Assembly: GCA_903859365.1 (NCBI GenBank)
Contig: CAIOMD010000007.1
Coordinates: forward strand, 477-64,476
DNA length: 64,000 nucleotides
Reading direction: 5' to 3'
Source: an uncultured Candidatus Saccharibacteria bacterium
GTDB lineage: Bacteria; Patescibacteriota; Saccharimonadia; Saccharimonadales; CAIOMD01
In this document: piece after piece, positions 3,153-42,749 of the stretch
Position numbering within the stretch: position 1 is the first letter of the stretch
Layout of the letters: each line of letters opens with the position of its first letter
Made by a program: the position numbers and the translations under genes
Notes under the pieces: model-generated
Told to the model about the DNA's origin: nothing
The model's input: only the letters and a program-made list of their open reading frames with translations
The model's database searches: none

Positions 3153-4358
3153 ATGAAAATTTTAATGCTGGGCTGGGAGCTACCACCTCACAATAGTGGG
3201 GGTTTGGGTGTTGCTTGCTATCAGCTTTGTGAAGCATTGTCTGTTAAAGATATAGATATTGAATTCGTGCTTCCATATAACGAGGTTCACTCCATTGACT
3301 TTATGAAGGTGCGGGCTGCGCTTTCGCACTCTGCTGGGAGTCTTCGGATAAGTGGTATTGCTTACGATAGTTTTAAGTATACTGATACGCAAGGTAATGA
3401 GCAGTGGCTTTCGATATTCGACCAACAAAAACTTTACGAGCAAGCAGCGGCACAGCTTACCGGCTATGAATCATTTGATATTATTCATGCTCATGACTGG
3501 TTAACCTTTAAAGCGGGGGTACTCCTCAAGCAAAAAACAGGAAAGCCGCTTATTCTACACGTACACTCTGTTGAAAGTGATCGATCGGGTGGAAATTACG
3601 GCAATCCCTTGGCACGAGAAATAGAACAAGAATCTATGCTTATGGCAGATAAAATAGTTGCAGTCAGTCAGCATACTAAAAACATCATCATAGCCGACTA
3701 TGCAATTCCAGCAGATAAAATAGAAGTGATTCATAATAGTATTGGCAAAATAGATGAAGTGAATCTGAGCGAACCTAATTCTTACAAATACCTTGCAGCG
3801 CTCAAAAATCATGGGTATAAGGTCATATCTAGTATCGGTCGACTGACTATTCAAAAAAATCTGATTAACCTTTTGCATGCGTTTAAACTCGTTACTAATA
3901 AAGAACCAAAAGCTATTTTACTTTTTGTAGGGAATGGCGAACAAGAGACGGAGCTTCTACTGCTTGCGGCTGAACTTGGCATTTCAAGAAATGTTATGTT
4001 TGCTGGGTTTCAAAGGGGAAAACGTTGGCGTGATGCATATACCATCGCTGATCTTTTTGTGATGCCATCCGTATCAGAGCCATTTGGCTTAACTCCACTT
4101 GAAGCAGTCGCGCTCGGTGTCCCAGTTCTCATATCAAAACAATCGGGTGTTTCCGAAGTTTTGAAAAATGCACTTAAGGTAGATTTTTGGGATGTTAATG
4201 AAATGGCCAATCAGATGCTTGCAGTACTACAGAACCAAAGCCTTAAAAACGAGCTCATAGTAAATGGAAGTAAAGAATATGAGTCAATGAATTGGTCCAA
4301 AGCTGCCAATCAACTAGAAGAAATTTACGCAAAAGCAGTTCGAGGAGTAAGCGGGTGA
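3153..4358 (+). CDS. glycogen/alpha-glucan synthase-like glycosyltransferase (GT4/GT5 type)
   Basis: The N-terminus MKILMLGWELPPHNSGGLGVACYQL and the SEPFGLTPLEA (E-x7-E) motif are typical of retaining GT-B glucan synthases. Confidence 0.8.
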   Translation: MKILMLGWELPPHNSGGLGVACYQLCEALSVKDIDIEFVLPYNEVHSIDFMKVRAALSHSAGSLRISGIAYDSFKYTDTQGNEQWLSIFDQQKLYEQAAAQLTGYESFDIIHAHDWLTFKAGVLLKQKTGKPLILHVHSVESDRSGGNYGNPLAREIEQESMLMADKIVAVSQHTKNIIIADYAIPADKIEVIHNSIGKIDEVNLSEPNSYKYLAALKNHGYKVISSIGRLTIQKNLINLLHAFKLVTNKEPKAILLFVGNGEQETELLLLAAELGISRNVMFAGFQRGKRWRDAYTIADLFVMPSVSEPFGLTPLEAVALGVPVLISKQSGVSEVLKNALKVDFWDVNEMANQMLAVLQNQSLKNELIVNGSKEYESMNWSKAANQLEEIYAKAVRGVSG

Positions 4359-5566: not shown

Positions 5567-7501
5567 ATGGCAAGACCGGTAATTCTCGGTAATGGTGCGC
5601 TTACTGTAGGGATTAATGAATTTGGACTAGTTGATGATTTTTATTTTCCTCATGTGGGGATGGATAACCTCACTACCTCTCGAAGTCAGAGCCATCTTCT
5701 CGGAGTGTGGTTAGATAATACTTTTTCATGGGTGAATGATGGATCCTGGAAGATATCAGTGGATTTTGAAGTTGACGCATTAATTGGCCACTGCGAGATG
5801 ACGAACGAAACATTGGCTATTAAGCTTTCGACGACAGATTTTGTAGATTCTGAGATGAATATTTTTTCCCGAATTATTGTTGTGCATAATCTCGCAAATC
5901 ACGCACGTTCGATAAAACTTTTCACTCACCAGGTATTTGAAATATCAAATAACGGGAGAGCTGATACAGCACTGTATCATCCTGATAATCAGTACATCTT
6001 GGATTATCAAGGAAACTGTAATTTAGTCATTTCTGGCGAAACGGAAAGTGGAAAATCATTTGATCAATTTGCCGTAGGTAATTATAGAGTTGAAGGCAAG
6101 GAAGGTGTTTATAAGGACGCAGAAGATGGTGTGCTATCCAGTAATCCTGTCGAACATGGGGGAGTAGATTCAGTCTTGGGATTTAATTTATCAATTGCGG
6201 CTGGCGCAAAATCTGAAGTTCGATACTGGGTGGCTGCTGAGAAAAATCGTAAAGATGCTGAAGGCCTACATGAGAGTGCAAAAAAAGGTGGAATTGAAGA
6301 AAAATTAAAAACAACTAAACAGTATTGGTTGAACTGGATGAAACCCGCCAGTATTGCTATTAATGCAAGTCCAAATAAATATAAGAATCAGATAAAGAAA
6401 TCTTTAATGATAATAAAGGCACATATAGATAAAGATGGTGGGATCATCGCCTCCATAGATTCTTCCATTTATAACTATGGCAGAGACTATTACAGTTATG
6501 TGTGGCCAAGAGATGGTGCATTTGCTATATGGCCTCTTCTGCGGCTTGGTTTTACTGATGAAGCAAAGAAATTTCTGACCTTCTGTAAAGATGTTCTCAC
6601 TGATGAGGGATATTTAATGCATAAATATCTTCCAGATAAAGCAATTGGCAGTACGTGGCATCCCCTCATACACGATGGTGTGAGCGAACTTGCAATTCAA
6701 GAAGATGAGACTGCCATTATCATATATATGATAAGTGAGTATTTTCGATATACGAAAGATGCTATTTTTACCAAGGATATGTACGAAAAATTTGTAGTTC
6801 CTGCTGCCAATTTCTTAGCTAATTTTGTTGATACAGAAACGCAATTACCTCATGCGAGTTACGACCTTTGGGAGCAAAAATTCCTGACTTCAACCTATAC
6901 AACGGCCGTAACCGCAAAAGCGCTTGACTGTGCTATTGTACTCTGTAACCAATTCGGAAAAAATGAATCAACTCCTTGGCAAAAAGCTCTAGATGGATTT
7001 AAAGCAAAGAGTGCTACTTTTTTTGATACTTCATCAAAAACATTCATCAAGGGTTTTTTACAAAATAAAACAACCGGAGTTATTGAGCCAGATACAACTC
7101 TCGATGTATCAAGCTTATACGGTGTCGTGCAATTCGGTTATTTCAATAATGATGAATACGATCGGATTTTTCATACCGCAAAAGTTTTAGAAGAAAGATT
7201 ACTGGACGCATCCCCGTCAGGGGGTATGCCGCGCTATGAGCATGATGATTATTTCTTAAATAAAAAAGATTTAATGGGTAACCCATGGATCGTTACGACT
7301 CTTTGGATGGCACAGTTTTATATAAAGAAAGGTGATAGAAAAAAGGCAGAGCACTATATTGACTGGTGTCTTGCAACGGCACTACCGAGCGGAGTATTTT
7401 CAGAACAGGTTGATGCGGTTTCAAAAGATGCTCTCTCGGTTACCCCGCTTGTGTGGAGCCATGCGGAGTTTGTTACAACTATCCTTTCACTACATAGTTA
7501 A
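5567..7501 (+). CDS. glycoside hydrolase family 15 (glucoamylase/glucodextranase-like)
   Basis: GH15 signature blocks are present: YSYVWPRDGAF, IQEDETA, YDLWEQKF, SEQVD and PLVWSHAEF. The ATG directly follows the upstream stop. Confidence 0.85.
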   Translation: MARPVILGNGALTVGINEFGLVDDFYFPHVGMDNLTTSRSQSHLLGVWLDNTFSWVNDGSWKISVDFEVDALIGHCEMTNETLAIKLSTTDFVDSEMNIFSRIIVVHNLANHARSIKLFTHQVFEISNNGRADTALYHPDNQYILDYQGNCNLVISGETESGKSFDQFAVGNYRVEGKEGVYKDAEDGVLSSNPVEHGGVDSVLGFNLSIAAGAKSEVRYWVAAEKNRKDAEGLHESAKKGGIEEKLKTTKQYWLNWMKPASIAINASPNKYKNQIKKSLMIIKAHIDKDGGIIASIDSSIYNYGRDYYSYVWPRDGAFAIWPLLRLGFTDEAKKFLTFCKDVLTDEGYLMHKYLPDKAIGSTWHPLIHDGVSELAIQEDETAIIIYMISEYFRYTKDAIFTKDMYEKFVVPAANFLANFVDTETQLPHASYDLWEQKFLTSTYTTAVTAKALDCAIVLCNQFGKNESTPWQKALDGFKAKSATFFDTSSKTFIKGFLQNKTTGVIEPDTTLDVSSLYGVVQFGYFNNDEYDRIFHTAKVLEERLLDASPSGGMPRYEHDDYFLNKKDLMGNPWIVTTLWMAQFYIKKGDRKKAEHYIDWCLATALPSGVFSEQVDAVSKDALSVTPLVWSHAEFVTTILSLHS

Positions 7502-34002: not shown

Positions 34003-35058
34003 ATGAGCTATACCATTAAAGACATTGCAGTTGCAGCTGAGGAACTAAAAAAACAGTTTGAAACTCTTGAAGATAAAAAGGCAATTCGTCGCTCACCTAC
34101 TTTTAGAGAACTCTTCTCAAAAATTAAAACTGCAGAACCTGATAAGCGCGCTCAATTTGGAGCGGAAGTTAACAAGCTCAAAAACGAAGTTGAGGCATGG
34201 CTAAGCGAGCTCGAGTCTGACAATGATGATAGGGCTCCTATCGATGTAACTGCACCCTTTCCCACAAATAGTAATCCAACTACACGATTCAGTCTTTTAC
34301 CGACGCAAAAAGGAAGCATCCATCCTCTCATGAAAGAACTTGAAACCGTACTTGGCATTTTCGCACGTATGGGATTTGCTACTATCGAATCAAGAGAAAT
34401 TGATGATGATTATCATATGTTCGGCGCTCTCAATTTCCCAGAAGGTCACCCAGCACGAGACGATTATGACACTTTTATGACGACGCAAAAGGATAAAAAA
34501 GGTAAACAATTTATTGCTCCTGCTCATACTTCTACGATGCAAAATAGAGTACTTAGGCAATTTGCTTCAAACCTTGTAAATGACGAACCAATTGCAGTAG
34601 TTATTCCAGGACGAGTATTTCGAAACGAAGATCTTGATGCACGGCATGAGCACACCTTTTACCAACTTGAGGGAGTATACGTCGGAAAAGCGGTTACGGC
34701 AGGTAATCTTATAGCAACGCTTAAAGTTTTTTTACAGGAATACTATCAACAAGAGCTTGAAGTAAAAACTCAGCCGTTTTACTTTCCCTTTACAGAACCT
34801 AGTTTTGAATTTGCCTTAAGCTGTCCATTTTGTAAAAAGCAAGGATGCAATGTGTGTAGCCAAACTGGATGGATTGAGCTTCTTGGGTGTGGCATGATTC
34901 ACCCAAATGTTCTAAAAGAAGCGGGGATAGACCCGACCATTTACACCGGCTTTGCTTGGGGTGGTGGAATCGATCGACTAGTGATGATGAAATACGATAT
35001 TGAAGACATTCGCCATTTTGAATCTGGAAAATTAGAATTTTTGAGGCAATTTTCATGA
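34003..35058 (+). CDS. pheS: phenylalanine--tRNA ligase subunit alpha
   Basis: Class II aaRS motifs are present (FRNEDLDARHEHTFYQLEG, GFAWGGGIDRL). Position and size are typical. Confidence 0.95.
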   Translation: MSYTIKDIAVAAEELKKQFETLEDKKAIRRSPTFRELFSKIKTAEPDKRAQFGAEVNKLKNEVEAWLSELESDNDDRAPIDVTAPFPTNSNPTTRFSLLPTQKGSIHPLMKELETVLGIFARMGFATIESREIDDDYHMFGALNFPEGHPARDDYDTFMTTQKDKKGKQFIAPAHTSTMQNRVLRQFASNLVNDEPIAVVIPGRVFRNEDLDARHEHTFYQLEGVYVGKAVTAGNLIATLKVFLQEYYQQELEVKTQPFYFPFTEPSFEFALSCPFCKKQGCNVCSQTGWIELLGCGMIHPNVLKEAGIDPTIYTGFAWGGGIDRLVMMKYDIEDIRHFESGKLEFLRQFS

Positions 35059-37559
35059 AAGTTGGTATAAAAGCAATTGAAGGAAACAGTAGTCTTCGAT
35101 TCAATAAGACTGATATAGATAACTTAGTCGAAAAAATTGGTTCACAGCTAGGAGCAGTTGATGAAGTTATAGATTGGGGCGAGCGTTACGAGGGAGTTGT
35201 TATAGTGCGAGTTATTTCTTGTGTAAAACATGAAAATGCCGACAATCTTAATGTTTGTCTTGTTGATGATGGTGGAATTGCAAAGAACGTAGAGAGAAAT
35301 CCAGAAGGATATGTTCAGGTAGTGTGCGGCGCGCCAAATGTGCGGGAAGGGATACTCGTTGCTTGGATACCACCTGGAGTGTCTGTTCCAAACACTTTTG
35401 GCTCTGAAGATGTTTTTGTAATCGGCGCAAAAGAGCTTCGCGGAGTTATGAGTAACGGAATGCTTGCGAGTCCATCTGAGCTTTATTTAAGTGATGACCA
35501 TAGTGGTCTACTTGAATTTGACGAAGATATAAACGGAACTACTCCTAAGCCGGGTGATTATTTCGCCAAAGCTATAGGAATGGATGAAATAATTATAGAT
35601 ATTGAAAATAAAATGTTTACCCATCGCCCAGATTGTTTTGGGATTCTTGGAGTAGCCAGAGAAATTAGTGGCATTATGGGTAAAGCGTTCGAGAGTCCTT
35701 CGTGGTATCTTGAAACACCTTCGTTTGAAAAAATACAAAAGCTACCGCTTTCTGTAAGTGTTGAAACTCCTGGACTGGTACCTCGTTTTATGGCAGTCGT
35801 AATGGATAATGTGCAAATGGCGGACAGCCCACTTTGGATGCAAGCACAACTACGACGGATAGGTATACGGTCAATTAATAATGTCGTCGATGTAACAAAT
35901 TACGTTATGTATATCACCGGCCAGCCACTTCATGCGTATGATTACGATAAGGTTGCAAAATTATCTTCGAAGGGCGCCGAGATTATAGTTCGCCATCCTC
36001 GCGCTAATGAAAAATTGCAACTGCTTAATGGAAAAACAATTGTACCTCGGACTGATGCCGTGGTGATTGCTAGCTCAAATGAGAGTATCGGACTTGGTGG
36101 AGTTATGGGTGGAGGCACCACTGAAGTGGACAAAAATACGACCCGCATAATTATTGAAGTTGCTAGTTTTGATATGTATAACATTCGAAAAACATCGATG
36201 CATCACGGCCTATTCACTGATGCTGTTACACGATTCAGCAAAGGGCAGTCAGTGCACCAAAACGATCGAGTTCTTAGCTATGCAATTGCTCAAATGATGA
36301 TTTTCGCTAACGGTACTCTAGCAAGTTCAGTCGTTGATGTAAAAAATGATCTAAAACCAAATCCAAAAATTATTCTTACCCCAGAATTTGTAAATGAAAG
36401 ACTTGGCATTGACTTGGGCATTGATGCTATGGAGAAGCTACTGGGTAATGTAGAATTTATTGTCTCTAAAGATAAGGGCCAACTTCACGTAACAGCTCCG
36501 TTTTGGAGAACTGATATAGCAATGAAGGAAGATGTTGTTGAAGAAATCGGAAGACTTCATGGTTTCGATAAACTTCCACTTACTTTGCCAGAAAAATCTA
36601 TTCTTCCGACCATCCCTAATAGCATGCTGAATATCAAATCTACTATTCGCGATAGCCTATGCCGTTTTGGTGCCAACGAAATACTAAGTTATAGCTTTGT
36701 GCATGGCGCACTCATGCAACAAGTTGGTCAAGATCCGACAAAAGCATTTAGTCTGTCAAATGCCTTAAGCCCGAATTTGCAGTATTACCGATTGACTTTA
36801 ACCCCAAGTTTACTTGAAAAAATTCATTCAAACGCAAAGGCAGGCTATGATGAATTTGCTATATTTGAGCTCGGAAAAGGACATTCACTAGAAAATAGTG
36901 ACGATGGGTCGGGTGTTCCTGAAGAGTTTGAAAAATTAGCCTTTGTGTATAGCGCTCAAACCAAAGCTGTTTCAAAAAATAGTGGAGAAGCTTATTTTAA
37001 AGCAAGCTATTTCCTGCAGGCATTACTCACAAACCTCCGTATTAATTACGCGCTTGAAGCAGTTAAGAATACTGAAGCACCTTTTGATCCTAAAAGAAGT
37101 GCTACAATTTTGGAAAAGAAAACTGGTCAAGTAATAGGGACTATTGGAGAATATACTCTTAAGACTCTTAAGGGATTGAAGCTCTCTAAATTAACTGCAG
37201 GATTTGAGCTAGATCTTCAAGTTCTTTTAAAACATGCTCAACAAAATGTTAACTACGAGGTTCTTTCCAAGTACCCAAAGATATCTCAGGATATTTCCCT
37301 AAAAGTGACCGGTGCTACAACGTATCAAATGATTGCTTCAGTAATTGATGAAACGGTTGCGTCTATCAATCAAGATACGAAGACGCAAACTACCGTTCAA
37401 CCACTTGATATATTTATGAATGAAGAAGGTGACAAACATACCACTTTTCGCTTAATTTTTAGTAGCCTTCAAAGAACACTCACCACCGAGGAAGTGTCAG
37501 GATTCTTAGACCGCATTGACGAACAGTTAACGAAGAAGCTCGGTGCAATAAGAATTTAG
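35055..37559 (+). CDS. pheT: phenylalanine--tRNA ligase subunit beta
   Basis: 834 aa. It has a tRNA-binding N-domain, B3/4 and B5 regions, and a C-terminal FDX-ACB-like domain. ATGA overlap with pheS. Confidence 0.95.
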   Translation: MKVGIKAIEGNSSLRFNKTDIDNLVEKIGSQLGAVDEVIDWGERYEGVVIVRVISCVKHENADNLNVCLVDDGGIAKNVERNPEGYVQVVCGAPNVREGILVAWIPPGVSVPNTFGSEDVFVIGAKELRGVMSNGMLASPSELYLSDDHSGLLEFDEDINGTTPKPGDYFAKAIGMDEIIIDIENKMFTHRPDCFGILGVAREISGIMGKAFESPSWYLETPSFEKIQKLPLSVSVETPGLVPRFMAVVMDNVQMADSPLWMQAQLRRIGIRSINNVVDVTNYVMYITGQPLHAYDYDKVAKLSSKGAEIIVRHPRANEKLQLLNGKTIVPRTDAVVIASSNESIGLGGVMGGGTTEVDKNTTRIIIEVASFDMYNIRKTSMHHGLFTDAVTRFSKGQSVHQNDRVLSYAIAQMMIFANGTLASSVVDVKNDLKPNPKIILTPEFVNERLGIDLGIDAMEKLLGNVEFIVSKDKGQLHVTAPFWRTDIAMKEDVVEEIGRLHGFDKLPLTLPEKSILPTIPNSMLNIKSTIRDSLCRFGANEILSYSFVHGALMQQVGQDPTKAFSLSNALSPNLQYYRLTLTPSLLEKIHSNAKAGYDEFAIFELGKGHSLENSDDGSGVPEEFEKLAFVYSAQTKAVSKNSGEAYFKASYFLQALLTNLRINYALEAVKNTEAPFDPKRSATILEKKTGQVIGTIGEYTLKTLKGLKLSKLTAGFELDLQVLLKHAQQNVNYEVLSKYPKISQDISLKVTGATTYQMIASVIDETVASINQDTKTQTTVQPLDIFMNEEGDKHTTFRLIFSSLQRTLTTEEVSGFLDRIDEQLTKKLGAIRI

Positions 37560-37568
37560 TAATTATTA

Positions 37569-37597
37569 TTGCAAAATAGTTGATTTAATGGTATATT
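37569..37597 (+). promoter_or_regulatory. near-consensus sigma70-type promoter with extended -10
   Basis: TTGCAA (37569-74), a 17-nt spacer, then TGgTATATT (37589-97). It begins 10 nt after the pheT stop. Confidence 0.5.
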
Positions 37598-37658
37598 AGC
37601 GAAGCTAGTTTTTCAGTTTACTGAAATATTGGTACTTTAACAGGTGATGTAATCCCAA

Positions 37659-37735
37659 GCGCCATTAGCTTAAAGGAAAAGCGCTGGAACGTGAATTTGT
37701 TTCCAGAGATGTAGGTTCGACTCCTATATGGTGCG
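37659..37735 (+). tRNA. tRNA-like cloverleaf with G3:U70 and an oversized anticodon loop (not a canonical decoding tRNA)
   Basis: The acceptor stem pairs GCGCCAT with ATGGTGC (7 bp including G3-U70). The D arm is GCTT-AAAGGAA-AAGC. The anticodon stem CTGGAA/TTCCAG encloses an 11-nt loop, CGTGAATTTGT. The T arm is GTAGG-TTCGACT-CCTAT. No CCA is encoded. Confidence 0.45.
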
Positions 37736-37926
37736 CGAGGCATACTCAGTGTCGTTTATACGAACAAGTATGCCCCAAGACGTGCTCTAAACTAGATTCC
37801 GACAGTCGAAATTTAGAGTACCAGGGATAGAGAAGCTTAGTTTTTTTGGTTTTTACCTCATTAGCTATGTTTCTCTATCCCGCCAATCTGCAGTTCCACA
37901 ATCGAACCTTGAAGGGGGTGATTATA

Positions 37927-38073
37927 GTGGCTTCCAACCAGGAAGAAGCTGTGCGTAGAGCATCGAGAGATGCCGGCATCGGTTCAAAGGAAGAGAAGGC
38001 AGCGTACGACGCTTACTGTGCTTCCATGCGCCGAGCCGGTCAAATTCCGAAGCAACTGCGCGACCTCCGATAA
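37927..38073 (+). CDS. possible small protein (48 aa) embedded in the GC-rich unit
   Basis: GTG 37927 lies 8 nt after a very strong SD-like AAGGGGGTGAT. The product would be (M)ASNQEEAVRRASRDAGIGSKEEKAAYDAYCASMRRAGQIPKQLRDLR. The stop sits inside the hairpin at 38063-38080. Coding status is uncertain. Confidence 0.3.
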   Translation: MASNQEEAVRRASRDAGIGSKEEKAAYDAYCASMRRAGQIPKQLRDLR

Positions 38074-38147
38074 TGGAGGTTTGAATAGACAATCTTTTGG
38101 GATTGATTTGGGCGGAAATACTGCTCAATCAGGTTACATCACCTGTT

Positions 38148-38197
38148 TGTTCTCAGAGTTCATAATGTAAATTGTGAATTGTGAGAACAGTTTTTTT
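38148..38197 (+). terminator. intrinsic terminator
   Basis: The stem TGTTCTCA/TGAGAACA has further inner pairing and is followed by G plus T7. Confidence 0.6.
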
Positions 38198-38235
38198 GCT
38201 AAAAACTTCATCCTTGCGTATGCTTAATATCGAGC

Positions 38236-40005
38236 ATGAGCGCAATTTGGAAAATAATCGTATTTAGCAAGTCACTATGGCGGTATTATGCCGGGATTAG
38301 TGTTTTAACTATTTTCTTAAGTATTGTTAATCTTTCGCAACCACTGCTTTCGGGTTGGGCTATTGATGAAATTGCTAAAGGCACCAAAGCGCATATTTCG
38401 TACGTACTTTGGGTAGCACTTGGTATCTTTGTGCTTGATTTATTGAGTACTGTATTTAGTAATGTTAGCGGTTATTTTGGTGATCAAATGAGCACTAAGC
38501 TGTATAGATTACTCGGCGTTAAATATTACGAACATCTTCTAACGCTACCCCAAGAGTATTTTGACACTGAACTCTCAGGTAAGATAATCAACGTTCAAAA
38601 TAGGTCAATTGTGCAGATTACTAATTTTATGAATATGCTTAGTAATAATTTTCTGCAATTCATCTTCAGCACTATTTTTGCGCTTGTGATAGTCGCTTAT
38701 TACAGTTGGCCTGTAGCTTTGATGCTCTTCTCGCTGTATCCGATTTACCTATTTTTAACCTTCAAGACGAGTAATATTTGGCAAGGATTCCAGCATAAGA
38801 AAAATCATCGATCGGATATTGCAACGGGAAGATTTGGTGAATCAATCTCACAAGTAAAAGTTGTTAAGAGTTTTATTCAAGAGGCCCGAGAAATTCTATT
38901 TTATAAGAAGCAGATGAACGAGATTGTTTCAATCAATAAGCCGCAGTCAAAATATTGGCATAAACGTGATACGCAACGAAGAATCATCCTTAATATTATT
39001 TTCTTTGCTGTTTATGCTTTTATTTTTACCCAAGCCGTCAAGGGAAAATTTAGTCCCGGAGAAGCTGTAGCGCTTATTCTGTATGCCATGCAAATTAGAA
39101 TCCCCATATTTACTATAAGTTTCCTCGTTGATAACACTCAACGCGCTATAGCAGATTCGAAAGATTATTTCGAAATTATGTCACTTGAGCCACGGATTAC
39201 TGATAAAGAACATGCAACTGAGTTAAATGTTAAAAAAGGTGAAATTAATTTTAATAACGTTTCCTTTGCGTATGATAAAAAGGATGTACTCAAAAATATT
39301 TCGTTTGACATTACTCCTGATACCAAAATAGCGTTAGTCGGTGAAAGCGGCGAAGGAAAAACAACTCTTACGAATTTGCTTATTCGATTGTATGAACCGC
39401 AATCAGGTACGATAACTATTGACGGTCAAAATATCCTTAACGTTACTCAAAAAAGTTTACGCGAAAATATTGGTGTTGTATTTCAAGATCCTGCACTGTT
39501 TAGCGGCACAATTTATGAAAATATCTCATATGCAAATGAGAAAGCAACAGAAAAAGAAGTTATTGCTGCTGCTAAAGCTGCAAATGCACACGAGTTTATC
39601 GAGAAATTCGATAAACAATATCAGACACAAATTGGTGAAAAAGGTTTGAAGCTAAGCGGCGGCCAAAAACAGCGAATTGCAATAGCTCGGGCATTACTTA
39701 AGAATGCGCCGATACTTATTTTAGATGAAGCTACATCAAGTCTTGATAGCCGTAGCGAAGGGTTGGTTCAAGAGGCACTCGATAGATTGATGCACGGAAG
39801 AACAACAGTGATAATCGCTCATCGATTAACAACAATTGCGCATGTTGATAAAATTATTACACTTAAAAACGGGCGAGTAGATGAAATAGGAACACCGTCT
39901 GAACTTGCAAAAACGAATGGTATTTACGCTCAATTACTTGCAATCAGTTCTAAGCAGGGCGAGATTGCTAAAAATAAATTAAAAGCTTACGAGATTGCTT
40001 CTTAA
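38236..40005 (+). CDS. ABC exporter, fused permease/ATPase (MsbA/multidrug type)
   Basis: It has six N-terminal TM helices, Walker A (GESGEGKTT), the signature LSGGQKQRIAIARAL and Walker B (ILILDEATS). Confidence 0.9.
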   Translation: MSAIWKIIVFSKSLWRYYAGISVLTIFLSIVNLSQPLLSGWAIDEIAKGTKAHISYVLWVALGIFVLDLLSTVFSNVSGYFGDQMSTKLYRLLGVKYYEHLLTLPQEYFDTELSGKIINVQNRSIVQITNFMNMLSNNFLQFIFSTIFALVIVAYYSWPVALMLFSLYPIYLFLTFKTSNIWQGFQHKKNHRSDIATGRFGESISQVKVVKSFIQEAREILFYKKQMNEIVSINKPQSKYWHKRDTQRRIILNIIFFAVYAFIFTQAVKGKFSPGEAVALILYAMQIRIPIFTISFLVDNTQRAIADSKDYFEIMSLEPRITDKEHATELNVKKGEINFNNVSFAYDKKDVLKNISFDITPDTKIALVGESGEGKTTLTNLLIRLYEPQSGTITIDGQNILNVTQKSLRENIGVVFQDPALFSGTIYENISYANEKATEKEVIAAAKAANAHEFIEKFDKQYQTQIGEKGLKLSGGQKQRIAIARALLKNAPILILDEATSSLDSRSEGLVQEALDRLMHGRTTVIIAHRLTTIAHVDKIITLKNGRVDEIGTPSELAKTNGIYAQLLAISSKQGEIAKNKLKAYEIAS

Positions 40006-40022: not shown

Positions 40023-42749
40023 ATGTCACTTCTAAAAAAGAAAAATAATAAACAAGAAAAACCCAATTGGTTAAGCAAACTAAGTTTATTTTTCTTTGAT
40101 AGACCTATTTTTTCAGCTACTCTTTGGTTGTTGATCGGAATTTTTGGAATCTTAAGCTATACCATTCTCTTAAGACGTGAAGGCTTTCCTCAGATCAGCA
40201 CTCCATATAGTACGGTAGCCGGTGCATATTTAGTTAACAATTCTGCAAAAGTTGATCATGATATCACGGGTCCAATTAGTCAAATTATTAGCAAAGTTTC
40301 TGGCGTAAGTACCGTATCAGCAACTGCTAACCCAAATTTTTACTCAATCGTTGTTCAATATAAAGAAGGCTATGATTCCACGAAAGGTAGTAATGATATT
40401 AAAGCAGCGGTTACGGCAGCACATATATTGCCAGCGACTGCCTCGGCAGCATTTCAGCCACTCGGTATTGGAAGTCCTAATGGCAAAACAGAAGACATTT
40501 TAATCTCTTTTTATAAACTAGATAATTCTGATTCAACTGCACAACTCACAAAGGTAGCCCAAGCGGCTGCAAAATATATGCAAAAAGCTGGGCACGCCCC
40601 AATGGCGCAGAGTTTTGCTGCTGACGATGTTTTTGTCTATGCGCCTGGAAGCGTGATAGGTGCGCAAAAAAACTTTGATCGTTATGTTTCCTCAAGTAAC
40701 GGTGTAGTTAACTCATATAATGCTGCAATAATTGGCGTTAAGGGAATTGCAAATTTTGATGCGTTAAAATTGGATACGCAACTCCGAACTTCTATACAGT
40801 ATCTTCTAATACAGTCTGCCTTTAAAGGTTATGGCGCAACCGTCAGTTTTTCTCCAGCTCCGGGGATAAAAACACAAATTTCTCAACTGCAAAAATCCCT
40901 TCTCGAGGGTCTTGCAGCAGTGTTTGTTTTAAGTGCATTGATTATAGCTTTCAGAGCGTCATTCATCACGGTCGGAGCAATGGCTTTCGTAATTTTGACT
41001 ACTCTGGGTGTGCTCTATGCATGGGGGTATTCACTAAATACGATAACCTTGTTCTCACTCATTCTGGCTCTTACCCTAATAGTCGATGACACAATTATTA
41101 TGGTAGAGGCGATTGATGCACAACGACGTAAAAGTGTAGACGCAAGAGAAGTGGTTATTGTTGCTACAAAAAAAATAAGTCGTGCAATGCTCGCAGCTAC
41201 ATCAGTAGCAGTTTTTGCTTTTTCGCCGCTAATTTTTGTGAATGGAATTCTTGGCCAATTCATTAGGGCAATCCCTGTCACCATCATCACGAGCCTTGTC
41301 GTTAGTTTACTCATTGCCTTAACCTTGATTCCTTTTATGGCAAAAGGATTACTGCTTCGAAAGAAACAACTTGGTAAAAATACTGAAGGCGAGTCAAAGG
41401 CTCATCACATGGAAGTGTTTGCTGCGCGAGCACTCGCACAACCACTTCGTTGGGCAAATCACAGTCGCCGACGTTTAGTAACCTTGGGAACCATATCGTT
41501 ATTCATAGGCCTTGGATTTATTGTTGCAGCAGGGATTGTTTTTCAAAAAGTAACTTTTAATATTTTTCCTCCGAGTAAAGACACTAACGGACTCACTGTT
41601 TCATTTGTTTACCCACCAGGAACTACCATTCAAAGAGCTCAACAGCTCGCTGATAAGGCTGACACAATCATAACGGCAACGCTCGGAAAGAATTTTCAGG
41701 ATGCAGCCTACTTCAATACTGGATCTTCTACTAGCAGTACTCTGCGGATCAATCTTATCCCCTATGATCAAAGGTCTATTACGGCGCCAGCTCTAAAAGC
41801 GCAACTCCAACAGCAACTCGACAGACGATTCAGAGAAGCAACGAGTGATGTTGAATTACAGGATGTCGCAGGGCCACCGGGGACATTTTCAGTAAGAATT
41901 GAAACTGACAATAGGGCACAAGGATTAGCGTTTGCTAATAATCTAAAAGGCTTTCTTTCAAAAGTCACGCTTAAGCGTACGAGTGGAGTTACCGCTCAAT
42001 TTAAATCCGTTACAATTAGTGACCCAGGTGTCTATTACCGGGCGAACGGTATTAGTTACATAGCAGTAACAGGATTATTCAAGGACTCCGATACAACAAC
42101 TCTAGATAACCTGTCCGAAACTGCGGTGAGCAATCATTACTCTAATGCAGATCTTGCAAAATATGGCTTAAGCCGCTCGCAAGTTAATTATTATTTAGGG
42201 TTTGAAGGACAAAACCAGAATTCATTCAAAGTATTACTGTACGCTTTTCCATTAGTATTATTATTTATTTACTTGTTATTAATTATCCAGTTCAAATCAC
42301 TTCTCCAGCCACTCCTTATTTTTATTGCAATTCCTTTTAGTCTTTTTGGAATAACACTTGGGCTATATCTTTCAAATAATGCGTTCAGCTTCTTTAGTCT
42401 TCTTGGGTTCTTTGCTCTACTTGGGCTGAGCATCAAAAATACTATTCTACTGACAGATTACGCTAATCAAGCTCGCCGGCAAGGTTTTCAGCCTGTAGAG
42501 TCAATGGCTCAAGCACTTGAGCAGCGTTTCAGACCACTTATTGCTACCAGTATCATCGCGATTATTTCTCTTACACCCCTAGCACTCACTAATCCATTTT
42601 GGCAGAGTCTTGCAGTTACGCTTATGGGCGGTCTCCTTTCAAGCACAATTTTGGTACTTGTTGCGTTTCCGTATTACTATCTCGGTGCAGAATTTTTGAG
42701 AATTCGTACAGCTAGATATTTTAAAAAGAAATTTTCCAAAAAGTCGTAG
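40023..42749 (+). CDS. RND-superfamily efflux permease (AcrB/AcrD/AcrF-like, short form)
   Basis: 908 aa. It has the typical N-terminus (FFFDRPIFSATLWLLIGIFG) and two 6-TM bundles with periplasmic-type loops. Confidence 0.85.
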   Translation: MSLLKKKNNKQEKPNWLSKLSLFFFDRPIFSATLWLLIGIFGILSYTILLRREGFPQISTPYSTVAGAYLVNNSAKVDHDITGPISQIISKVSGVSTVSATANPNFYSIVVQYKEGYDSTKGSNDIKAAVTAAHILPATASAAFQPLGIGSPNGKTEDILISFYKLDNSDSTAQLTKVAQAAAKYMQKAGHAPMAQSFAADDVFVYAPGSVIGAQKNFDRYVSSSNGVVNSYNAAIIGVKGIANFDALKLDTQLRTSIQYLLIQSAFKGYGATVSFSPAPGIKTQISQLQKSLLEGLAAVFVLSALIIAFRASFITVGAMAFVILTTLGVLYAWGYSLNTITLFSLILALTLIVDDTIIMVEAIDAQRRKSVDAREVVIVATKKISRAMLAATSVAVFAFSPLIFVNGILGQFIRAIPVTIITSLVVSLLIALTLIPFMAKGLLLRKKQLGKNTEGESKAHHMEVFAARALAQPLRWANHSRRRLVTLGTISLFIGLGFIVAAGIVFQKVTFNIFPPSKDTNGLTVSFVYPPGTTIQRAQQLADKADTIITATLGKNFQDAAYFNTGSSTSSTLRINLIPYDQRSITAPALKAQLQQQLDRRFREATSDVELQDVAGPPGTFSVRIETDNRAQGLAFANNLKGFLSKVTLKRTSGVTAQFKSVTISDPGVYYRANGISYIAVTGLFKDSDTTTLDNLSETAVSNHYSNADLAKYGLSRSQVNYYLGFEGQNQNSFKVLLYAFPLVLLFIYLLLIIQFKSLLQPLLIFIAIPFSLFGITLGLYLSNNAFSFFSLLGFFALLGLSIKNTILLTDYANQARRQGFQPVESMAQALEQRFRPLIATSIIAIISLTPLALTNPFWQSLAVTLMGGLLSSTILVLVAFPYYYLGAEFLRIRTARYFKKKFSKKS

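Follow-up and report, generated by a model that had tools for sequence, protein, structure and literature searches.

A tRNA-shaped domain under selection in the 5′ untranslated region of a structured small-protein mRNA beside pheST in Saccharibacteria

What does a cloverleaf do for a bacterium if its anticodon loop is not the loop of a tRNA? The question arises at positions 37659–37735 of a 64,000-nucleotide stretch of an uncultured Candidatus Saccharibacteria genome (assembly GCA_903859365.1, contig CAIOMD010000007.1, positions 477 to 64,476 of the forward strand; the whole stretch is hereafter called the window), where a 77-nt tRNA-shaped module follows the genes pheS and pheT. A first-pass annotation had noted the G3:U70 pair of alanine tRNAs together with an oversized anticodon loop, and had offered explanations ranging from an alanylated, non-decoding RNA to a tRNA mimic, a processing handle or a decayed tRNA. 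The comparison with related loci reported here identifies the 77 nt as a tRNA-derived structural domain under selection, which is neither a working tRNA nor alanine-specific, and places it as one branch, in the 5′ untranslated region (UTR), of a ~0.6-kb independently terminated unit with its own putative promoter (37569–38197) that encodes a small protein, named SP1.

The module lies on the + strand, as do all features described below, and was recovered by ARAGORN, by the Rfam tRNA model, by its minimum free energy (MFE) fold and by covariation. It reads GCGCCAU-UA-GCUU-AAAGGAA-AAGC-G-CUGGAA-CGUGAAUUUGU-UUCCAG-AGAU-GUAGG-UUCGACU-CCUAU-AUGGUGC-G, followed by CGAGGC, and thus contains a 7-bp acceptor stem (GCGCCAU/AUGGUGC) that includes G3-U70, a 4-bp D stem (GCUU/AAGC) with the loop AAAGGAA, a variable region of 4 nt, a 5-bp T arm (GUAGG-UUCGACU-CCUAU) and a discriminator G that runs into CGA, with no encoded CCA. 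The parts listed by the first-pass annotation are all present in the sequence at the coordinates it gave, as is the position directly downstream of pheST, the module starting 99 nt past the stop codon of pheT (35055–37559, assigned by Pfam). The anticodon arm allows two readings. The widest has 6 bp and an 11-nt loop (CGUGAAUUUGU), so that the loop size first reported stands as the largest possible one; in the other, an extra C-G pair forms over a bulged U to give 7 bp and an 8-nt loop, GUGAAUUU. Relatives show the same extended arm minus the bulge, with 8 uninterrupted bp and loops of 7–8 nt.

Measured against the canonical tRNA architecture of 7, 4, 5 and 5 bp plus tertiary nucleotides, the module conforms except in the anticodon stem, which has 6–8 bp instead of 5, and its loop of 8 or 11 nt is not the 7-nt loop with U33 and a purine at position 37. 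ARAGORN called positions 37659–37736 as 'tRNA-??? anticodon (gaat)', a four-base anticodon, and the Rfam tRNA model aligned with 53.3 bits (gathering score 29; E = 1e-8) while placing 13 nt in the anticodon loop against the 7 expected by the model. The unconstrained MFE fold was a cloverleaf (z = −2.5 relative to shuffles), and the module was the sole tRNA match in the window.

Relatives were gathered through homologues of the small open reading frame (ORF) and of PheT. The window PheT is that of Saccharibacteria (TM7, within Patescibacteria), with 82% identity to its best genome match, L001, and about 50% to most others. The modules compared were those of L001, the L046 type, L059/L060, L061, L065, L068, L062 (n = 2), L067 (n = 2, one degenerate) and L038, and these orthologous or analogous modules all adopt cloverleaves as MFE structures. 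In the covariation set, which covered 16 acceptor-, D- and T-stem pairs in 10 distinct modules, 99.4% of pairs were formed, both sides had changed at 12 of the 16 pairs, and the observed covariation score was reached by 0 of 500 shuffles, with slid registers dropping to 29–58% paired. The columns U8, A9, G10, C11, A14, G18, G19, G52, G53, U55, C56, A58, C61 and C62 were invariant, among them the universal tertiary nucleotides U8, A14, G18, G19, G53, U55, C56, A58 and C61; the L046 type has C54 in place of U54. The window module is 80% identical to that of L001 or L046, and the whole unit 81–85%, whereas four-fold degenerate sites of the adjacent pheT are only 36–42% identical in the same comparisons, which argues for strong purifying selection and against a pseudogene. 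The non-canonical design was kept across lineages down to 55–65% PheT identity; the relatives carry equally non-canonical modules rather than a normal tRNA with a 7-nt loop.

By contrast, the features specific to decoding or to a synthetase varied. Pair 3:70 was G-C in four of the ten modules (L059, L061, L062b and L067b), A-U in two (L038 and L001, the closest relative, which also has U4-G69), C-G in two (L065 and L062a) and G-U in two, G3:U70 being confined to the window type and the L046 type. The acceptor-stem sequences of orthologues are unrelated (GCGCCAU, GCGUCGU, GACCAGG, GUCCCCG and UGUCGGG), and because they differ so completely a conserved synthetase identity set is excluded. The discriminator was G or A across modules and G73 throughout the window's subgroup, and the window has C2:G71, not G2:C71. 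Anticodon arms ranged from 5 to 8 bp and their loops from 4 to 11 nt, U33 was mostly missing (C33 or G33 in its place), and several modules have a pyrimidine at position 37. The arm of the window's subgroup has 8 bp and a loop of 7–8 nt (GUGAAUNU, UCGAUUU in L059 and GCAAAUU in L061); elsewhere it has 5 bp and the 8-nt loop UUGAAACA (L065), 5 bp and a 7-nt loop with C33 or G33 (L068 and L062a), 7 bp and a 5-nt loop (L062b), or 6 bp and a 4-nt loop (L067b), while L038 combines a formally normal 5-bp stem and 7-nt loop with the implausible anticodon AUU. ARAGORN labelled the orthologous modules Ile(GAU), Phe(AAA), Cys(GCA), Leu(AAG), Arg(UCG), Asn(AUU) and ???(gaaa), returning four-base anticodons for the window, L001 and L065. 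The triplet GAA, which had been read as a phenylalanine anticodon in the window, occurs in window-clade loops as well as in those of L065 and L062a and is absent from those of L059 and L061; it is not a conserved element. A search of the unit for a segment able to pair with the loop and changing in step with it, in the manner of a kissing loop or a T-box-like specifier, gave only AU/GU-rich chance matches at non-homologous positions.

The extreme case is the first module of L067, in which the D and anticodon arms are lost or unrecognisable and the acceptor and T arm are kept (24 bits), pointing to the acceptor/T minihelix as the selected part. A side observation concerns the 3′ border of the modules, where the nucleotide after the discriminator is C in all of them (checked at window 37736; L062 12768 and 12955; L065 6744; L067 6735 and 6971; L068 3681; L038 1967); the trailers read CGA, CUG, CCA, CGG and CAA, and full CCA is encoded only in the second module of L062. 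Taking the comparison as a whole, the module has retained a 7-bp acceptor stacked on a 5-bp T stem, the elbow nucleotides and an unpaired discriminator without an encoded CCA, and it has lost the 7-nt loop with U33 and purine 37, a conserved anticodon, a conserved 3:70 pair and a conserved acceptor sequence.

The larger RNA in which the module sits is closed by a long-range helix, P1. In the window its 5′ strand AACAGGUGAUGUAA (37639–37652) is the exact reverse complement of its 3′ strand UUACAUCACCUGUU (38134–38147), found by an inverted-repeat scan, and the resulting perfect 14-bp helix is the single such pair in the 64 kb. P1 is a perfect helix of 11–15 bp without G-U pairs in all 13 lineages, and its sequence takes at least 8 forms; all pheT-linked units share CAGGUG/CACCUG, for which two distant units have CAGAGAU... 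instead. Outside the left strand of P1 lie a candidate promoter at 37569–37597, recognised by a consensus scan (−35 TTGCAA, a 17-nt spacer and a TG-extended −10 TATATT), and a 5′ leader hairpin, GCUAGUUUUUCAG...CUGAAAUAUUGGU, at 37604–37633, which RNAalifold placed at the predicted RNA 5′ end and which appeared in the MFE folds of 9 of 9 lineages; the arrangement TTGnnn-17-TGnTAnAnT is legible upstream of all related units. The right strand is abutted by an intrinsic terminator at 38148–38197, a 19-bp imperfect hairpin followed by U7 that was identified from the inverted repeat, the sequence and the folds. Upstream of the unit, a 13-nt AT-rich inverted repeat, UGCAAUAAGAAUU / AAUUAUUAUUGCA (37544–37573), lies across the pheT stop codon and reaches into the −35 box; it is too weak for a terminator, making read-through from pheST into the unit plausible.

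Inside P1, the module is joined by short linkers, ~4–6 nt (UCCCAA) to P1 and ~3 nt (CGA) to hairpin H1, which RNAalifold placed at 37740–37773 directly 3′ of the trailer CGAG. H1 differs in sequence among the window, L001 and L059 with its pairing kept, pairs 146:179 and 148:177 having changed on both sides. It is followed by a second long-range helix predicted by RNAalifold, P2, formed by CCCAAGA (37774–37780) and UUUUGGG (38095–38101), in which one pair is altered on both sides in L059, and by hairpin H2, an inverted repeat GGGAUAGAGAAGC...GUUUCUCUAUCCC at 37824–37881, whose position is occupied in L059 by another sequence with six pairs changed on both sides. A block that is near-invariant in two alignments, UGCAGUUCCACAAUCGAACCUUGAAGGGGGUGA (37889–37921), contains the Shine-Dalgarno sequence GGGGGU (37914–37919), which is predicted by folding to be sequestered through pairing with ACCUU just upstream; L070 has a comparable block, CCUGAGGAGGUGAU, 5′ of its ORF. 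RNAalifold further predicted a hairpin over the SP1 stop codon (ACCUCCGAUAAUGGAGGU, 38063–38080), and sequence comparison revealed a penultimate hairpin, UGAUU-GGGCGGAAAUACUGCUC-AAUCA (38104–38131), which is the most widely kept block of the family, present in the window, L001, L046, L059, L061, L062, L065 and recognisable in L024. Across four lineages RNAalifold found 28 pairs changed on both sides, and single-sequence MFE folds of 9 lineages recovered the shared architecture, in keeping with the earlier suggestion that the module is a tRNA mimic within a larger RNA.

Searches of the window and its relatives against Rfam, at gathering and at relaxed thresholds, returned tRNA only, apart from a sub-threshold 6C-like match in one relative, and RNase P RNA, T-box, GOLLD/ROOL, tmRNA, YrlA and group I intron were considered and dropped; visual inspection of P1 and the leader gave no fit to attC, integron or hammerhead motifs. 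Several relatives contain paired hairpins with C-rich (CCCCC) loops (L067 6823–6896; L065 ~6820–6850 and ~6975–7000; L024 ~5570–5640; L038 ~1975–2010) that resemble the actinobacterial 6C RNA (37.5 bits, gathering score 47, E = 0.004), with weak CcsR1-like matches as well; possible pairing partners of such loops are the small ORF's G-rich Shine-Dalgarno and other mRNAs.

The ORF itself (37927–38073) starts with GTG, ends with TAA and encodes the 48 amino acids of SP1, MASNQEEAVRRASRDAGIGSKEEKAAYDAYCASMRRAGQIPKQLRDLR. Between the window and the L046 type it shows 12 synonymous and 6 non-synonymous differences, and from such comparison SP1 is a real coding sequence under purifying selection. A profile search of a library of 1.84 billion proteins found 34 representative clusters of 42–55 amino acids, typically ~45, with the consensus MAxNQEEAVKRA...AYxxYxxSMxxxGQxPKxLxDL; members were noted in the window, L001, L046, L059, L065, L068, L069 and L070. 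AlphaFold2 modelled a helical hairpin with a predicted local distance difference test score of 88, for which no significant match was found among PDB folds (best E = 2.2, CP12), and SP1 matched nothing in Pfam, PHROG or NCBIfam, so the protein family and its host RNA appear to be previously undescribed. Unrelated Cys-rich ORFs of 39–48 amino acids (CxxC...CxC, zinc-ribbon-like) replace SP1 in L062 (13196–13315) and L067 (7234–7380), which indicates that the coding cargo of the unit was swapped during evolution. In L061 about 100 N (7113–7211; masked or a scaffold gap) cover the Shine-Dalgarno and ORF, placing the ORF of that lineage outside the comparison.

In most Saccharibacteria a gene for a 589-aa ABC exporter follows pheT at a distance of 0–50 nt. 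An insert of 0.56–1.05 kb between the two genes marks one PheT clade in a neighbour-joining (NJ) tree, where it is present in 8 of 8 lineages (the window, L001, L046, L059, L061, L062, L065 and L067), and it also occurs in L068, which is PheT-linked and outside the NJ tree, and in L038 and L024, the last of which groups with L026, a lineage without the unit. Its presence throughout the PheT clade indicates that the unit is inherited vertically within a Saccharibacteria clade, between pheT and the ABC-exporter gene. Two distant, higher-GC contigs, L069 (1–740) and L070 (1–467), carry an SP1 unit directly upstream of a tRNA-dihydrouridine synthase (Dus) gene, complete with promoter, leader hairpin, P1, Shine-Dalgarno and ORF, P1′ and 3′ hairpin. 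In L070 this hairpin ends at the dus start codon without a U-run, a placement that suggests coupling to dus expression. The tRNA-like module is missing from three units, L024, L069 and L070, and this absence, together with the other ORFs of L062 and L067, marks it as an accessory part of a wider group of small-protein mRNAs closed by a helix. Neither the conserved 3′ motif nor SP1 was found in viral contigs.

The neighbourhood of the window unit consists of pheST, the ABC exporter and an AcrB/MMPL-like gene. A block right before the ABC-exporter start, CUUGCGUAUGCUUAAUAUCGAGC-AUG (38198–38238), is almost invariant across the clade, and the hexamer TAATAT ends 5 nt upstream of the ABC ATG, so that the ABC gene may be expressed as a leaderless mRNA from a promoter of its own. 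The 908-aa AcrB/MMPL-like gene (40023–42749) follows the ABC exporter in the window, L062 and L067; it is missing from L059, L061 and L065, where FKBP comes directly after the ABC gene. Genes are inserted between pheS and pheT in L065 (DUF3850, 3723–4004) and L068 (a weak MazG-like match, 625–942), and these overlap their neighbours by 4 nt, like pheS and pheT in the window.

For which machinery would such a domain be kept? An anticodon arm is dispensable for RNase P, RNase Z and the CCA-adding enzyme, whose recognition rests on the acceptor/T-arm minihelix and the elbow. Since the features retained by the module are the recognition set of these three enzymes, we favour, tentatively and at somewhat less than even confidence, a built-in processing handle for RNase P and RNase Z, which the first-pass annotation had already listed among its options and with which the retained features agree. 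The substrate features of both enzymes are in place, with a 12-bp acceptor and T stack, an intact elbow, single-stranded flanks and no CCA. In the proposed mechanism, cuts by RNase P at G37659 and by RNase Z after G37735 would release a stable, non-decoding 77-nt RNA and leave an SP1 mRNA that starts ~3 nt before H1, that is, with a hairpin-protected 5′ end, while the ~55-nt leader would remain annealed to the 3′ end of the mRNA through P1. Processing of this kind would set the stability of the SP1 message, possibly its translatability, and could insulate it from pheST read-through. Put more broadly, our best guess is a handle for RNase P and RNase Z, or for some other elbow-binding factor, that would process or stabilise the mRNA.

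Four observations weigh against the processing handle. The module is tightly embedded, with ~4–6 nt to P1 and 3 nt to H1, which could obstruct the enzymes or mean that it works uncut as a structural branch; the units of L024, L069 and L070 do without it, which makes it accessory rather than essential; L062 and L067 pair it with unrelated Cys-rich ORFs, which weakens a link specific to SP1; and the 8-bp extended arm kept in the window's subgroup is left unexplained by a pure processing handle.

The same observations are in part what recommends the next reading, which we regard as rather unlikely though as the main rival. Here the module would be an uncut tRNA mimic that either offers its elbow or acceptor/T arm to a binding factor, as a docking site or operator through which the small ORF is translationally controlled, or simply lends the RNA a stiff scaffold resistant to nucleases; candidate binders would be a tRNA-modifying or tRNA-binding protein, PheRS, SP1 itself or a T-loop receptor in the same RNA, by analogy with the thrS operator and the mimicry in ribosomal-protein mRNAs. 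It is consistent with a module that branches from a multi-helix P1/P2 junction on very short linkers, with an arm whose length is fixed at 8 bp in the window's subgroup while its sequence changes, much like a ruler, with units that adjoin tRNA-related genes in two contexts (pheST, and Dus in L069 and L070), and with the predicted sequestration of the Shine-Dalgarno. However, the search for a co-varying sequence complementary to the loop gave nothing convincing, the modules accompany non-homologous ORFs and three units have none, and RNase P would hardly overlook a correctly folded tRNA shape whose flanks are single-stranded.

There is a wider proposal, to which we give no more than about one chance in its favour for several against: that these units form a new class of dual-function bacterial RNA specific to Saccharibacteria and the candidate phyla radiation (CPR), a helix-closed, multi-domain mRNA of 0.45–1 kb for a conserved ~45-aa protein, into which, in one clade, one or two tRNA-shaped domains were recruited as cis-acting sensors or operators. 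Through these domains the cell's machinery of tRNA maturation or tRNA binding would be linked to small-protein expression or to what becomes of pheST read-through transcripts, and cleavage would yield a two-piece RNA joined by P1.

It is improbable that the P1 arms act at the DNA level, as the inverted repeats of a mobile or invertible cassette that carries the module along as cargo or contains it as a piece captured from a former tRNA gene 3′ of pheT. The perfect, G-U-free P1 of 13 of 13 lineages would likewise result from recombination between such repeats, and mobility would suit the two genomic contexts (between pheT and the ABC gene, and upstream of dus), the patchy occurrence outside the main clade (as in L024, which groups with the unit-less L026) and the modular interior with zero to two tRNA-likes and different small ORFs. 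Yet the 64-kb window holds a single copy with no recombinase or transposase gene found nearby, and orientation relative to pheT and the ABC gene is constant in 13 contigs of the window, L046 and L001 types. The nested P2 and the internal hairpins co-vary, inheritance within the clade is vertical, and the viral contigs searched hold none. The layout, too, fits an RNA helix, because the promoter and leader hairpin stand outside the left P1 arm and the terminator abuts the right one.

A decaying tRNA pseudogene or attachment-site (att) remnant without a function of its own, another of the earlier suggestions, is largely refuted and now very improbable. The non-canonical anticodon loop, C54 in the L046 type and the absence of the module from some related units would suit decay, but they stand against 80% module identity where four-fold sites of pheT have fallen to 36–42%, changes that are overwhelmingly compensatory, invariant tertiary nucleotides and one design maintained across lineages. 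Still less credible is the alanine identity that had been deduced from G3:U70, under which alanyl-tRNA synthetase (AlaRS), an enzyme that ignores the anticodon, would charge the RNA for a non-ribosomal use such as cell-wall cross-bridging or lipid aminoacylation, or its variant in which PheRS reads GAA. G3:U70 is indeed present in the window and the L046 type, and loops with GAA occur in the window clade, L065 and L062a; the pair is nevertheless found in only 2 of 10 modules, with A-U, G-C or C-G in the others, the window has G73 for A73 and C2-G71 for G2-C71, and GAA is absent from L059 and L061. A ligand of PheRS would offer G34, A35 and A36 in a 7-nt loop on a 5-bp stem together with A73, against the 8-nt loop, 7–8-bp stem and G73 seen here, and the extended stem would misplace the loop for the anticodon-binding domain of PheRS.

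A genuine decoder with an expanded loop (a quadruplet or frameshift suppressor) or a tRNA with a mini-intron can be practically dismissed, the four-base anticodons called by ARAGORN in the window, L001 and L065 notwithstanding, as the loop spans 4–11 nt of variable sequence on a stem of up to 8 bp, usually without U33 and in several modules with a pyrimidine at 37, as the extra loop sequence amounts to only 1–6 nt, against the hundreds of nucleotides of a group I intron, with no match to the group I intron model (Intron_gpI), and as we know of no bacterial machinery that removes tRNA introns of 4–7 nt. The alanine-identity, phenylalanine-anticodon, quadruplet-decoder and mini-intron readings all fail for one reason, namely that every decoding or synthetase-specific feature varies. 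One report describes unusual tRNA genes of Patescibacteria that carry group I introns at position 35/36 (PMC13011429), which is a different phenomenon.

Only a few non-decoding tRNA-shaped domains within longer RNAs are known (tmRNA, YrlA, mascRNA and the viral tRNA-like structures), and each has been informative on how the tRNA machinery is re-used. To our knowledge, RNA-based regulation in the reduced genomes of Saccharibacteria is almost unexplored, and the literature searched held nothing that connects Saccharibacteria with tRNA-like elements. What is new here is the place, the 5′ UTR of a small-protein mRNA inside a closing helix, the host, and the evolutionary pattern, in which the elbow and acceptor/T arm stay invariant and the 'anticodon' hairpin evolves freely. 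The modules are also a trap for annotation, as their ARAGORN and Rfam tRNA labels (Ile, Phe, Cys, Leu, Arg and Asn) would distort censuses of tRNAs in the CPR, and an unannotated small-protein family and an undescribed structured RNA family are now open to modelling and searching.

Among known systems the module is most like the tRNA-like processing signals of long non-coding RNAs, and it fails the defining features of transfer-messenger RNA (tmRNA) and of YrlA. With tmRNA it shares an anticodon-less tRNA-like part and a short reading frame in one RNA and, in the window, G3:U70. However, the tRNA-like domain of tmRNA is built from the 5′ and 3′ ends of the RNA, whereas the module is contiguous, its 'anticodon' hairpin is closed and it has a D stem; tmRNA universally keeps G3:U70, A73 and CCA, which are not conserved here; and the tmRNA frame is a degradation tag without Shine-Dalgarno or start codon, in contrast to the strong Shine-Dalgarno, GTG or ATG start and conserved 48-aa protein of the unit. 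ARAGORN and Rfam searches for tmRNA in the window found none. YrlA (RF02553) resembles the unit in its tRNA mimicry (T arm, D arm and elbow) and in a 5′/3′ closing helix, but that helix extends from the position of the anticodon stem and binds Ro/Rsr, while the tRNA-like of the unit is a side branch. Moreover, the unit is 4–8 times longer than YrlA and codes for protein, rsr and rtcB are not among the nearby genes, and RF02553 had no match in the window and one at chance level in a relative (18 bits, gathering score 69, E = 0.9).

Other bacterial RNAs share single traits with the unit. GOLLD and ROOL are multi-hairpin bacterial RNAs of 0.5–1 kb with tRNA or tRNA-like sequences inside or adjoining; unlike them, the unit has no match to their Rfam models and no phage context, and is also an mRNA. 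The hok mRNAs (fbi/tac) are small-ORF mRNAs with 5′–3′ pairing, a compact fold and an occluded ribosome-binding site, the occlusion being predicted in our case, whereas SP1 is hydrophilic rather than a membrane toxin, an antisense RNA is not evident and hok has no tRNA-like domain. The thrS leader operator and the 'tRNA-Other' of B. cereus are likewise bacterial imitations or derivatives of tRNA used for regulation instead of decoding; the former copies the anticodon arm alone, which is just the part that our modules do not conserve, and the latter, unlike the module, is a free-standing, aminoacylated tRNA-like gene with a normal loop.

The closest analogues of the proposed mechanism are mascRNA of MALAT1 and its MEN-beta counterpart. 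MALAT1 provides the precedent for a non-decoding tRNA-like that is cut from a longer transcript, and the only known role of the mascRNA and MEN-beta elements is recognition by RNase P and RNase Z (and the CCA-adding enzyme), which gives a long RNA a defined end. Like these elements, the module is a non-decoding cloverleaf inside a much longer transcript that has kept its acceptor/T arm and elbow. It differs in being bacterial rather than eukaryotic and nuclear, in lying in a 5′ UTR within a long-range helix instead of at a 3′ end, and in its cleavage, which is predicted; the sequences are unrelated. If the processing reading is true, the module would offer a testable case of tRNA-like punctuation of a bacterial mRNA, and if the dual-function reading is true, it would bring the MALAT1/mascRNA principle to bacteria for the first time, with a new use of tRNA mimicry in a 5′ UTR.

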